From: Chlamydiales bacterium
GTDB lineage: Bacteria; Chlamydiota; Chlamydiia; Chlamydiales; SM23-39
Assembly (NCBI GenBank): GCA_030681135.1
Contig: JAUXXF010000004.1
Location: forward strand, 699-64,698
Direction: 5' to 3'
Length of the DNA stretch: 64,000 bases
The position numbers and the translations under genes are program-made. Each line of letters opens with the position of its first letter. Positions within the stretch are counted from its first letter, which is position 1. The notes below the pieces were generated by a model. It saw only the letters and a program-made list of their open reading frames with translations. It was not told the DNA's origin and did no database searches. Shown piece after piece: positions 59,408-61,940 of this stretch.

Positions 59408-60367
59408 ATGAAAAGTTTTTTTTTGTGTAAACTAGTTCCTTGGTACTTTGTTAGGTTTATGAAACGAATAGCTTGTTTGATCGCATTGGTTGGTTTTTGT
59501 GCCTTGATTGGAAAAGGATGGCACCTTGTAAAAGATGGGTTTAGTTTAAACCGCACCTGCTCTCTTGGGTATAACCTCAAACACCGTCATTCCAACGCAA
59601 CATTGATCGCTGAAGGAAAGACGGCTCCATGGAATCTGGATGATTCGATCTTGCGGCAACCATATACTTATTTAGGAAGGGGGCATCAATGTTATGCGTT
59701 TGCCAGCGCTGATGGAAAATATGTCATTAAGTTGCCTCGCTATGATCGCTACAGGCTTTCATTTTTTCTCCGCGCTTGTCCTTTTTCTTGGCTTACATCT
59801 CATCGTCATGCCATCCGAGCTGATATTGAACAGAGGCTTCGGTTTCTCTTAAATAGTTTTCATCTAGCTTTTGAGGAGCTTCAAGAGGAGACTGCGCTCC
59901 TTTATTTGCATCTTTACCGCACGGATCATTTTAACTTTCCTCTTGTTCTGCAAGATCGTTTAGGACGCTCTCATTTGTTAGATCCCAATCAAACTTCGTT
60001 TATTGTCCAAGAGAAAAAGCCCATTATGATGAGCTCTTTTCAACAGTGTTTAGAGAAGAATCGTCGAGAAGAGGCTAAAGAAATCCTCGATGCCTTTTTG
60101 CAAGTCATCTCAAAACGTGCCGAGAGAGGCATCTATAATAAAGACCCCTCTTTTTTACGCAATTTTGGATTGGATAAAGGAAAAGGATTTCAGATTGATA
60201 TTGGCAGTTTTTATCGAAAACCTGCTCTTTCATTGGAAGAAGCTCGCAAAGCCTCTTTTCAAGAGACAATTCATCATGTAAGAAACTGGCTAGATGACAT
60301 AGATCCTGAGATGTTATATACGTTTGATCAGAAGATTCAAACGATCAAACAGTCATGGGCCGATTAA
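59408..60367 (+). CDS. N-terminally anchored protein-kinase-like fold protein, paralog 1
   Basis: Hydrophobic N-terminus (the start may be ATG 59459, 'MKRIACLIALVGFCALIG'). 'YLGRGHQCYAFASADGKYVIKL' (Gly-loop and Lys), 'EETALLYLHL', 'RGIYNKDPSFLRNFG' (catalytic-loop-like), 'QIDIG' (DFG-like). Confidence 0.55.
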   Translation: MKSFFLCKLVPWYFVRFMKRIACLIALVGFCALIGKGWHLVKDGFSLNRTCSLGYNLKHRHSNATLIAEGKTAPWNLDDSILRQPYTYLGRGHQCYAFASADGKYVIKLPRYDRYRLSFFLRACPFSWLTSHRHAIRADIEQRLRFLLNSFHLAFEELQEETALLYLHLYRTDHFNFPLVLQDRLGRSHLLDPNQTSFIVQEKKPIMMSSFQQCLEKNRREEAKEILDAFLQVISKRAERGIYNKDPSFLRNFGLDKGKGFQIDIGSFYRKPALSLEEARKASFQETIHHVRNWLDDIDPEMLYTFDQKIQTIKQSWAD

Positions 60368-61158
60368 TTGTCTTTGTTTTATTAAGCGTAAGTAGTTTCT
60401 ATGCTCCCTTAGTCATGAAACGTCTGACAAAAGGTTTTCATTTGACTCGCCTTGACGTATATGATTGGAACGCTTTCAAAGGATTAAATCAAGATGATGT
60501 AAACCCTCCTATCGAACAAGAAATTTTGGAGGTGTTATCTCAACCTTTTACCTATTTGCATAGAGGCGCTCAATGCTATGTATTTGAAAGTCAAGATCGA
60601 AAATATGTGATAAAATTTTTTCAAAAAAGAAAGAAAAAAATCAAAAAGATTGATTTTACCTCCTATCTTATTGCTTACTATAAGGCAAAAGAGGAGACTG
60701 CTTTACTCTATATGCATTTGATTCCAACTCAGCAGGGGCTGCCTAAACTTTCTGTGAGGTCTCCTTTGGGGAAATGGTTTTCTCTCTTTTTGGATCGATA
60801 TGCTTTTGTGATTCAAAAAAAAACAAAGTCTTTTCGAGAAACGCTCCTTCAAGCAAGTAAAGAAAAAACATTGGATGTTTATCTCTTCTCCTTATTGGAT
60901 CTTCTCGATCAACGAATTGCAAAGGGAATTCGCAATAAAGACCTCTCTTTAAGCTCTAATTTTGGGTTTTTAGGAGAGCAAGCGATCGAATTTGATTGTG
61001 GATGCTATCTTGAATCAGTAGATTTTTTACAGCCGTCTTATCAAACTTTGGAAAAAACACTTTTTGTGAATCAGTTACGTCTCTTTATGGAAGCAAATCT
61101 GCCTGATGATCTTGGTTTATTCGAAGAGTTAGTCCAAAAACGGGTATATCAACAATGA
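60355..61158 (+). CDS. N-terminally anchored protein-kinase-like fold protein, paralog 2
   Basis: 'YLHRGAQCYVFESQDRKYVIKF', 'EETALLYMHL', 'YAFVIQKK', 'KGIRNKDLSLSSNFGFLGEQAIEFDCG'. It overlaps paralog 1 by 13 nt. Confidence 0.55.
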   Translation: MGRLIVFVLLSVSSFYAPLVMKRLTKGFHLTRLDVYDWNAFKGLNQDDVNPPIEQEILEVLSQPFTYLHRGAQCYVFESQDRKYVIKFFQKRKKKIKKIDFTSYLIAYYKAKEETALLYMHLIPTQQGLPKLSVRSPLGKWFSLFLDRYAFVIQKKTKSFRETLLQASKEKTLDVYLFSLLDLLDQRIAKGIRNKDLSLSSNFGFLGEQAIEFDCGCYLESVDFLQPSYQTLEKTLFVNQLRLFMEANLPDDLGLFEELVQKRVYQQ

Positions 61159-61940
61159 TTCGATTTTTATTCATCGTCTGTTGCTTGAGCCTTCCTTTTC
61201 TCTATAAAGAGATCACCCACGGATTTCGTGTCAATAAACTCTATTTAGCTCGTAAAGGGGGAGAGGTTCAACATCATGAAGCAGCGGCTCTCTTATTAAA
61301 CCAGCCTTTTTCTTATTTAGGTCGGGGCCTACAGTGTTTTGTGTTTGAAAGCCATGATGGCCAGGTGGTTCTTAAATTATTTAACATTGCAAAGCGAAAA
61401 TTTTTGCAGGAGCGGACAGAAAAAACTCTTCAGGCTTGTCAGTTAGCGTTCGAACTGGCAAGGGAAGAAACTGGACTTTTATATATTCATGTCGATTCTA
61501 CCGATAAACAAGGGCTTTCTGTTTACCTGAAGAATGGTTTTGGAATCTCAAGGTTTCTTTCTTTAGATAAGTATGCCTTTGTCATTCAAAAAAAAGCTCA
61601 ACCTTTTAAAGAAACAATACTTAAGGCTCTAGAGCAAAATAGGGCAGATCCTTTCATTGATTCGTATTTGACGCTCATCTACCAACGCGCCTCTAAAGGC
61701 CTATGCAATACAGATGTTGCTATTATGAGAAACTTTGGATTTTTAGGAGAAGGAGCCTTAGAAATAGATTTTGGTAATTATATCTATTCTCCTGAAGAGA
61801 AAAGGGAAGAATTTCAACGCTTTGCCCTGCGTATGCGTCGGTTTATAAAAAAATATGCCCCTCACTACCTTTCTAGATACGATGAGAAGGTGAGTGGGTA
61901 TAGATACATGGTTATTGACAAAGAATCCAAAGGCAGCTAA
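61155..61940 (+). CDS. N-terminally anchored protein-kinase-like fold protein, paralog 3
   Basis: 'YLGRGLQCFVFESHDGQVVLKL', 'EETGLLYIHV', 'YAFVIQKK', 'KGLCNTDVAIMRNFGFLGEGALEIDFGN'. ATGA overlap with paralog 2. Confidence 0.55.
   Translation: MIRFLFIVCCLSLPFLYKEITHGFRVNKLYLARKGGEVQHHEAAALLLNQPFSYLGRGLQCFVFESHDGQVVLKLFNIAKRKFLQERTEKTLQACQLAFELAREETGLLYIHVDSTDKQGLSVYLKNGFGISRFLSLDKYAFVIQKKAQPFKETILKALEQNRADPFIDSYLTLIYQRASKGLCNTDVAIMRNFGFLGEGALEIDFGNYIYSPEEKREEFQRFALRMRRFIKKYAPHYLSRYDEKVSGYRYMVIDKESKGS

Follow-up and report, generated by a model that had tools for sequence, protein, structure and literature searches.

Three overlapping paralogous genes in a chlamydial contig

The subject of this analysis is a set of three consecutive open reading frames (ORF1, ORF2 and ORF3) on the + strand of a 64-kb stretch of DNA, the window, taken from contig JAUXXF010000004.1 of GCA_030681135.1, a Chlamydiales bacterium. 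They encode members of an undescribed and unnamed family within the known protein-kinase-like (PKL) superfamily. Read directly from the DNA, the frames span 59408-60367, 60355-61158 and 61155-61940, are 319, 267 and 261 amino acids (aa) long and overlap by 13 and 4 nt, exactly as a preliminary description of the sequence had given them.

59459..60367, + strand: ORF1, 302 aa counted from Met18 (the mechanical ORF from 59408 is 319 aa), 'long-type'
60355..61158, + strand: ORF2, 267 aa, 'short-type', start overlapping the ORF1 stop
61155..61940, + strand: ORF3, 261 aa, 'short-type', ATGA overlap with ORF2

The ATG of ORF2 at 60355 falls within the end of ORF1, 'ATGGGCCGATTAA', and ORF2 and ORF3 share the 'ATGA' at 61155-61158. 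Translation of ORF1 most probably begins with the ATG at 59459 (Met18), because the 17 codons upstream of it (59408-59458) differ between strains at 8 of 17 residues and by a one-codon indel, with 93% identity downstream, because all other ORF1 orthologs start 'MK[KR]' directly ahead of their hydrophobic segment, and because the NCBI annotation is also 302 aa. No convincing promoter or terminator was found inside the three-ORF array, and this, together with the overlaps, suggests that the genes are co-transcribed and translationally coupled.

In BLASTP comparisons the three proteins align with one another over nearly the whole domain, with E-values of 1e-19 (ORF1/ORF2), 8e-35 (ORF1/ORF3) and 4e-43 (ORF2/ORF3) and identities of 26-37% over almost the entire length, which bears out the earlier description of them as paralogs. 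A hidden Markov model (HMM) of the family scores them at 281, 242 and 256 bits, respectively. The 'long-type' ORF1 carries 20-30 additional residues between beta3 and alphaC, an insert that ORF2 and ORF3 lack. The best explanation is that the three are anciently diverged paralogs within one operon segment.

The ratio of nonsynonymous to synonymous substitution (dN/dS) was computed between the window and the corresponding locus of a closely related strain (L072, ~91% DNA identity). All three genes are under purifying selection, with values of 0.107 for ORF1, 0.181 for ORF2 and 0.126 for ORF3, in the range of the neighbouring genes in the same comparison (manA, 0.111; hydrolase, 0.206; glycosyltransferase (GT)-like gene, 0.086). 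The two strains also differ by an indel of ~666 bp (window 61893-61911 versus L072:4871-5536), because of which the C-terminus of ORF3 is not the same in both. L072 has a gene for a 216-aa lipoprotein of no known family (lipobox LSGC) between ORF3 and manA, which the window lacks. The idea that the array of the window has a fourth member was rejected, as the extra L072 gene is this unrelated lipoprotein.

Predicted fold and active-site residues

AlphaFold2 (AF2) gave a model of ORF3 with a predicted local distance difference test score (pLDDT) of 91.1 and a predicted TM-score (pTM) of 0.86 from a 22-sequence alignment, and a model of ORF1 (302 aa) with pLDDT 92.8 and pTM 0.88 from 141 sequences. 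The ORF3 model opens with a helix (2-21), followed by three antiparallel strands (51-57, 61-66 and 71-77), a long helix (82-101) and a short one (103-106). Its middle part consists of strands 108-112, 122-126, 132-136 and 142-146 and helices 151-160 and 165-180, and its C-terminal part of a short strand (183-185), a loop, strands 194-197 and 200-203 and two long helices. As modelled, this layout is beta1-3, alphaC, beta4-5, alphaD-E, catalytic loop, beta7-8 and DFG, that is, a protein-kinase-like fold, and the ORF1 and ORF3 models both appear to have the bilobal fold that characterizes the PKL superfamily. What follows the DFG-like motif in both models is one short strand and a pair of long helices only, with no activation segment and no APE.

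Structure searches with Foldseek agree with this assignment. Against the PDB, the ORF3 model gave 268 matches at E<=1e-3, of which the best 50 are all kinase-fold proteins, and the ORF1 model gave 18, all of those listed again kinase-fold; of 121 BFVD matches at the same threshold, the best 50 are nearly all protein kinases of giant viruses or phages. The best PDB match of ORF3 is AceK, the isocitrate dehydrogenase kinase/phosphatase (6k5l, E 3.7e-6), with a query-normalized TM-score (TMq) of up to 0.49 (3lc6). Its other matches include CK2alpha, Rio2 (1zar, TMq 0.43), WbdD, Legionella Lpg2603 and PRPK/Bud32 (7szc, TMq 0.48, target-normalized TM-score 0.53). For ORF1, WbdD comes first (4ax8, E 5e-5), and the other matches include the UbiB-like proteins MSMEG_1954 and Rv3197 as well as RIOK2/Rio2 and AceK. 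The order of elements in the models and matches that are essentially all kinase-fold thus uphold the preliminary description of the proteins as atypical and protein-kinase-like, an identity that is supported by predicted structure and not by sequence.

The motif blocks on which that description was based are all present in the order proposed:

59675..59731, + strand: ORF1, Gly-rich loop to beta3 Lys, GRGHQCYAFASADGKYVIK (G75, K91)
60559..60615, + strand: ORF2, Gly-rich loop to beta3 Lys, HRGAQCYVFESQDRKYVIK (G71, K87)
61320..61376, + strand: ORF3, Gly-rich loop to beta3 Lys, GRGLQCFVFESHDGQVVLK (G58, K74)
60125..60169, + strand: ORF1, catalytic loop, RGIYNKDPSFLRNFG (D229, N235)
60922..60966, + strand: ORF2, catalytic loop, KGIRNKDLSLSSNFG (D196, N202)
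61695..61739, + strand: ORF3, catalytic loop, KGLCNTDVAIMRNFG (D187, N193)
60191..60205, + strand: ORF1, DFG-like motif, QIDIG (D247)
60988..61002, + strand: ORF2, DFG-like motif, EFDCG (D214)
61761..61775, + strand: ORF3, DFG-like motif, EIDFG (D205)

Conservation was counted across 150 members of the family, with identities to ORF3 down to ~25%. In ORF3 numbering, G58, F64, K74, Q145, N193 and D205 are invariant (150/150), D187 is conserved in 149, and position 185 is D in 95 and N in 55. The modelled positions suit kinase roles: the third strand of the N-lobe carries K74, the stretch between the alphaE-like helix 165-180 and strand 194-197 carries D187 and N193, and D205 follows the beta8-like strand 200-203, 18 residues past D187. 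In PKA, D166 and D184 are separated by the same 18 residues. E105 of the 'EET' block, present in 124/150, is a plausible alphaC Glu but is located where alphaC (helices 82-101 and 103-106) ends on its C-terminal side. Secondary-structure placement, invariance and the AceK register described below agree on the glycine loop, the VxK lysine, the D...N of the catalytic loop and the DFG-like aspartate, and the residues expected of a PKL protein (beta3 Lys, catalytic Asp...Asn and metal-binding Asp) all appear to be in place.

Two details of the motif reading had to be changed. The catalytic loop is D-x4-[R/S]-N, i.e. D-x5-N, so that the D-x6-N first written for it was one position too long, and the hinge-like 'YAFVIQKK' belongs to ORF2 and ORF3 while ORF1 has 'TSFIVQEKK'. 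The usual H-x-D is indeed missing, the full loop being [D/N]-x-D-x5-N. The family therefore stands apart from the eukaryotic protein kinases (ePKs), having no H-R-D, no D-x4-N spacing and no activation segment ending in APE.

A large unnamed family in tandem arrays

Sequence searches did not connect the family to a named one. Pfam and NCBIfam scans of ORF1-3 gave no match at E<=1 apart from noise and none to the kinase clan, and ORF3 had no Pfam match at all; PADLOC matched no model. PDB sequence searches with profiles of 3, 22 and 150 sequences returned only noise (e.g. LL-37 and KduI). Among the 150 members, a Pfam scan gave isolated sub-threshold matches only, to AceK_kinase (E 0.013, 1/150) and FTA2 (E 0.027, 2/150), with none to RIO1, and for ORF1-3 and these members no family HMM of clan CL0016 (PF00069, PF01636, PF06293, PF01163, PF06176 and others) gave a match near its gathering threshold. 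The view that no named family applies thus holds for ORF1-3 and for 150 relatives. Of the two observations that the preliminary description had paired as counting against a kinase, one was made (no kinase-clan Pfam hit), yet the predicted fold is kinase-like and not unrelated. No description of the family was found in the searchable literature.

An exhaustive profile search at E<=1e-3 matched 2,543 cluster representatives (clusters of 50% identity), a number that falls to 1,842 if E<=1e-30 is required; most members are 250-310 aa long. None of the best 120 matches of a word-indexed search carries a Pfam domain, and their source names are all 'hypothetical protein' except for one JGI 'glycosyltransferase' label; that label, on P0210, is unsupported. 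Longer members were inspected for informative extra domains, and none was found. The source organisms on record are Chlamydiales, Rhabdochlamydiaceae, Simkaniaceae, Parachlamydiaceae, or mislabelled metagenome-assembled genomes (MAGs) of the Planctomycetes-Verrucomicrobia-Chlamydiae (PVC) group. By sequence, the family appears nearly restricted to uncultured Chlamydiota, in a survey that was patterned on close relatives, is biased toward them and supports no conclusion on absence from cultured chlamydiae or the Chlamydiaceae. Many loci with chlamydial gene content (L029, L034-L036, L038, L067 and others) bear public labels of Verrucomicrobia, Acidobacteriota or 'Chlamydia trachomatis' (a MAG), and record titles are an unreliable taxonomy for them.

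Arrays were surveyed with the family HMM at 67 loci of species-representative genomes, all of them MAGs, and at six other loci. Most of these, counted with the HMM for 69 loci, have same-strand tandem arrays of 2-9 copies, sometimes two arrays to a locus. In the closest relatives (L001 and L003) the order of ORF1-, ORF2- and ORF3-type genes is kept at 43-65% identity, and a fourth copy, absent from the window, follows the ORF3-type gene. More distant lineages have only ORF1-like 'long-type' copies, and ORF2 and ORF3 accordingly seem to be a derived short subfamily without the beta3-alphaC insert. Occasionally two family domains are fused in one polypeptide of 440-560 aa (P0020, P0021, P0023 and P0166; L053:7953-9482 and L054:6551-8248), which may point to joint action of adjacent paralogs. 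On a 2.2-Mb chlamydial contig, a seven-copy array is directly followed by an IS605 OrfB/TnpB-like gene (L073:13410-14519), and F-box, RING and OTU-like genes of eukaryotic type lie near it.

The branch outside the chlamydiae is small and its members are rare; it is exemplified by a 252-aa homolog (L068:9965-10723) in a 66%-GC genome labelled Alphaproteobacteria, encoded between MatE and ATG22/MFS transporter genes. The non-chlamydial homologs retain the VLK lysine and the DFG-like D-x-G. As a stepping stone to a named family the L068 protein failed, having no Pfam or PDB link, and the ~13 clusters related to it are equally unnamed.

That annotation has never gone beyond 'hypothetical protein' might be taken to mean that these are spurious or decaying ORFs with a chance resemblance to kinase motifs. 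The number of cluster representatives, the purifying selection, the confident AF2 models and the invariant active-site residues refute this idea, to which we give practically no credence.

Relation to AceK and to the Rio and Bud32 kinases

The family profile was compared by hhalign with E. coli sequences, using 100 shuffles and 12 unrelated E. coli proteins as controls. AceK scored 25.0, against 14.4 +/- 2.6 for the shuffles and 11.5-19.5 for the unrelated proteins. The alignment pairs G58 with G320, F64 with F326 and K74 with K336 in a gap-free N-lobe register, and D187 with D457, N193 with N462 and D205 with D475. The roles of the AceK catalytic residues are documented, Lys336 being the lysine that holds ATP and Gly320 part of the ATP site (PMC3747045). 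AceK thus provides the only sequence comparison above the controls as well as the top PDB match of ORF3, and its kinase domain is, by structure and weak profile similarity, the nearest known relative.

In both AceK and the family the catalytic loop closes with '[K/R]-N-F-G', but the loop of the family is one residue longer, and the N-terminal regulatory domain and the substrate-recognition loop of AceK are missing. In contrast to the proteobacterial AceK, the family has an N-terminal membrane segment, forms tandem arrays and occurs in Chlamydiota. Its members do not belong to the AceK family proper (PF06315), since the HMM stays below threshold (the single match noted above) and the proteins, of 260-300 aa, have no regulatory domain, only a membrane segment ahead of the kinase core.

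With Rio and Bud32 (PRPK) the family shares a compact core of ~230-270 aa and a short C-lobe without an activation segment, and RIOK2 entries are numerous among the Foldseek matches. It differs from them in having no winged-helix or flexible-loop elements, in its probable membrane anchor and in having no ribosome- or tRNA-modification genes around it. These likenesses raise the question of whether the proteins transfer phosphate at all: they might be ATPases or switches of Rio, Bud32 or UbiB type, AMPylators like SelO, or hetero-oligomers that are in part pseudokinases. The presence of Rio2, PRPK/Bud32 and UbiB-like proteins among the nearest structures points that way, as do the missing H-x-D and activation segment, and overlapping, probably coupled genes would fit a stoichiometric hetero-complex, as would the two-domain fusions. 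However, the near-universal conservation of the catalytic Asp and the invariance of the Asn, DFG-like Asp and beta3 Lys make classical pseudokinases unlikely, and nothing indicates flipped-nucleotide chemistry. On balance we think such other chemistry quite improbable.

Gene neighbourhood and comparison with lipopolysaccharide kinases

The gene order in the window is PHO4, cyclophilin, DUF1761, GT28-like gene, DUF8085, array, manA and alpha/beta hydrolase, with the following features upstream of the array:

54971-55951, - strand: PHO4
57053-57451, + strand: DUF1761 gene, 8-nt overlap with the 443-aa gene
57444-58775, + strand: 443-aa GT-like gene, faint GT28_C match (E 0.13), no PDB sequence match
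58831-59379, - strand: divergent DUF8085 gene, between the GT-like gene and the array

The neighbours named at the outset are thus what they had been taken for: a GT-like gene (on the faint GT28_C match), manA for a type I phosphomannose isomerase, and an alpha/beta hydrolase. Just upstream of PHO4 lies a second tandem pair on the + strand (53699-54268 and 54342-54914), coding for highly similar paralogs of ~190 aa with N- and C-terminal hydrophobic segments, a conserved Cys-containing middle and no Pfam or NCBIfam match.

Across the surveyed loci, the recurrent neighbours are PHO4 (17 loci), TGT (15), Vut_1 (15), DUF8085 (14), the GT-like gene (12), manA, DUF1761 and MarC (10 each), as well as an ABC ATPase gene, and the DUF1761/GT-like pair is kept beside the array in 10-12 loci. 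This context is a conserved chromosomal position and not a functional operon. A secreted protein of ~280 aa, made with a cleavable signal peptide, is encoded on the same strand upstream of arrays in 24 loci from many chlamydial lineages (e.g. L002:3901-4743 and L053:6958-7908), although not beside the array in the window; it has no Pfam, NCBIfam or PDB sequence match and may be a functional partner of the arrays.

A GT-like gene and manA close to kinase-fold genes of this size might suggest kinases of the lipopolysaccharide or lipooligosaccharide (LOS) core, of WaaP, WaaY or KdkA type, acting with those two genes on a glycolipid. The substrate of the WbdD kinase is the terminal sugar of a polymannose O-antigen linked to lipid. 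WbdD, WaaP, WaaY and KdkA are bacterial membrane-associated enzymes of kinase fold that act on lipid-linked sugars, and the family resembles them in fold and in its probable membrane association; WbdD is also the top structural match of ORF1, and WaaY, unlike WaaP, aligns in the same D/N/D register. However, the family has neither the methyltransferase nor the coiled-coil domain of WbdD, and the hhalign scores of WaaY (17.8) and WaaP (15.5) are both within the control range. When the 150 members were scanned, neither PF06293 nor PF06176 ranked with the 25 Pfam families matched most often (E<=1), and no WaaP structure occurs among the PDB matches listed (best 50) for either model. We therefore rejected WaaP/KdkA membership, on these hhalign scores and on PF06293 giving no HMM match to ORF1-3 and none among the listed matches of the 150 members; of the resemblance suggested earlier only the size stands. 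The GT-like gene and manA do recur near arrays in 10-12 loci, but most arrays lack these neighbours, the association is lineage-specific synteny, and no waa genes of an LPS-core cluster were seen near the arrays. Two to nine paralogs per array are also hard to square with the truncated LOS of chlamydiae, and a role in LOS core phosphorylation appears very improbable.

The N-terminal segment and the side of the membrane

Each of the three proteins begins with a short basic N-terminus and a hydrophobic segment of 15-18 residues, in keeping with the original description of them as N-terminally anchored:

59468..59512, + strand: ORF1 hydrophobic segment, IACLIALVGFCALIG, after n-region MKR; model helix 2-25
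60364..60417, + strand: ORF2 hydrophobic segment, LIVFVLLSVSSFYAPLVM
61164..61205, + strand: ORF3 hydrophobic segment, FLFIVCCLSLPFLY; model helix 2-21

Among 148 members, median lengths are 4 residues for the N-flank, which has ~2 K/R, and 17 for the uncharged stretch, and a conserved T-x-G-F motif follows ~5 residues past that stretch. The stretch is semi-conserved at its C-terminal end, with Cys17 in 82/150. The N-termini of the members surveyed (148-150) contain no lipobox and no consistent A-x-A site. Considering these absences and the semi-conserved end, the segment is most likely an uncleaved membrane anchor. We rejected a lipoprotein reading, as the semi-conserved Cys follows 'RF' and not a lipobox. 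Since the non-chlamydial homologs are without a hydrophobic N-terminus, the segment was added in Chlamydiota.

The same segment could instead be a Sec signal or a type II anchor that places the domain in the periplasm, in the lumen of the inclusion or inside the host cell, where envelope or host targets would be phosphorylated with host-derived ATP. Chlamydiae import host ATP across their envelope, which makes periplasmic ATP conceivable. The 'MKK'-type N-terminus, the short N-flank and a hydrophobic stretch that often ends in Pro are Sec-like, and the anchor was acquired in chlamydiae and is absent from soluble relatives elsewhere. The gene for the secreted ~280-aa protein often precedes the arrays, a lipoprotein gene follows the array in L072, and expansion into divergent tandem copies is characteristic of the families by which environmental chlamydiae interact with their hosts (see PMC4209131). 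Arguing the other way are ~3 K/R, several of them conserved, within 15 residues past the hydrophobic stretch, charges that normally hinder export. In addition, there is no consistent signal-peptidase site, the dN/dS of 0.11-0.18 gives no arms-race signal, and the order of the paralogs is conserved across genomes. We regard an extracytoplasmic or secreted location as a possibility that deserves tentative consideration.

In a fuller version of this idea, which we hold to be unlikely, extracytoplasmic kinases would have radiated within Chlamydiota alone: a kinase-like ancestor, soluble, cytoplasmic and still found in a few other bacteria, would have gained a signal-anchor and been amplified into arrays of up to nine divergent but catalytically intact copies for host-ATP-driven phosphorylation of envelope, inclusion or host molecules. 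The eukaryotic secretory-pathway kinases FAM20, POMK and FAM69 have a short N-terminal tail, a single hydrophobic anchor and an atypical kinase-fold domain without HRD. Compared by description, their likeness to this bacterial family is one of architecture only; no detectable sequence similarity and no preferential structural similarity was seen here. If the extracytoplasmic radiation were true, it would be a bacterial counterpart of these kinases.

Proposed activity and its meaning

We consider it likely, from the conserved residues and the models, that the family consists of active, membrane-tethered phosphotransferases of kinase fold. The architecture would be a short basic N-terminus, one hydrophobic anchor and, ~5 residues later, a bilobal core of ~240 residues. 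ATP would be bound beneath the G-x-G loop and positioned by the invariant beta3 Lys (K74 in ORF3), the catalytic-loop Asp (D187) would act as catalytic base and activate the acceptor hydroxyl, and Asn193 and the DFG-like Asp205 would hold Mg2+. The geometry of this triad would be as in AceK and the eukaryotic protein kinases, with [D/N]-x-D-x5-N in place of H-R-D-x4-N.

Several points weigh against this proposal. No sequence link to any kinase family reaches a curated threshold, and the Foldseek TM-scores of ORF1 and ORF3 are only 0.3-0.5, which places the proteins in a kinase-like fold but near no solved family. The AceK alignment is weak (E 0.007), with 1 of 100 shuffles equalling its score, and it thus supports the register and is no proof of specific kinship. 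Rio, Bud32 and UbiB-like relatives act largely as ATPases and not as true kinases. The neighbouring genes are mostly housekeeping synteny and, marking a conserved position and not a functional operon, identify no substrate. Finally, the K+R count is 2.0 before the hydrophobic segment and 3.1 in the 15 residues after it, so that the positive-inside rule favours neither orientation and topology is not fixed.

Since every copy keeps the catalytic residues, all are probably active phosphotransferases and not pseudokinases, and the paralogs most likely differ in their acceptor. Much less certain than activity itself is the nature of the acceptors; with the core lying right against the anchor and a C-lobe reduced to a minimum, membrane or envelope molecules, either (glyco)lipid head groups or envelope proteins, would be the most likely.

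What sets the family apart is the [D/N]-x-D-x5-N loop, the acquired membrane anchor and the amplification in tandem arrays in Chlamydiota. The kinase-fold superfamily is among the best catalogued, yet no Pfam or NCBIfam model recognizes this family of thousands of members within it. The alignment and motif definition suffice to build a family model, which would annotate about 2,500 clusters of 'hypothetical protein'. For the Chlamydiota, obligate intracellular bacteria, the arrays are one of the more conspicuous sets of tandem paralogs, and their position beside PHO4 on the chromosome is ancient and conserved. Their substrates, once defined, would extend the microbial kinome by a branch and could reveal a new layer of phosphorylation at the envelope or the host interface; if the domain is extracytoplasmic, it would mean that energy parasites are able to carry out reactions driven by ATP outside their cytoplasm.

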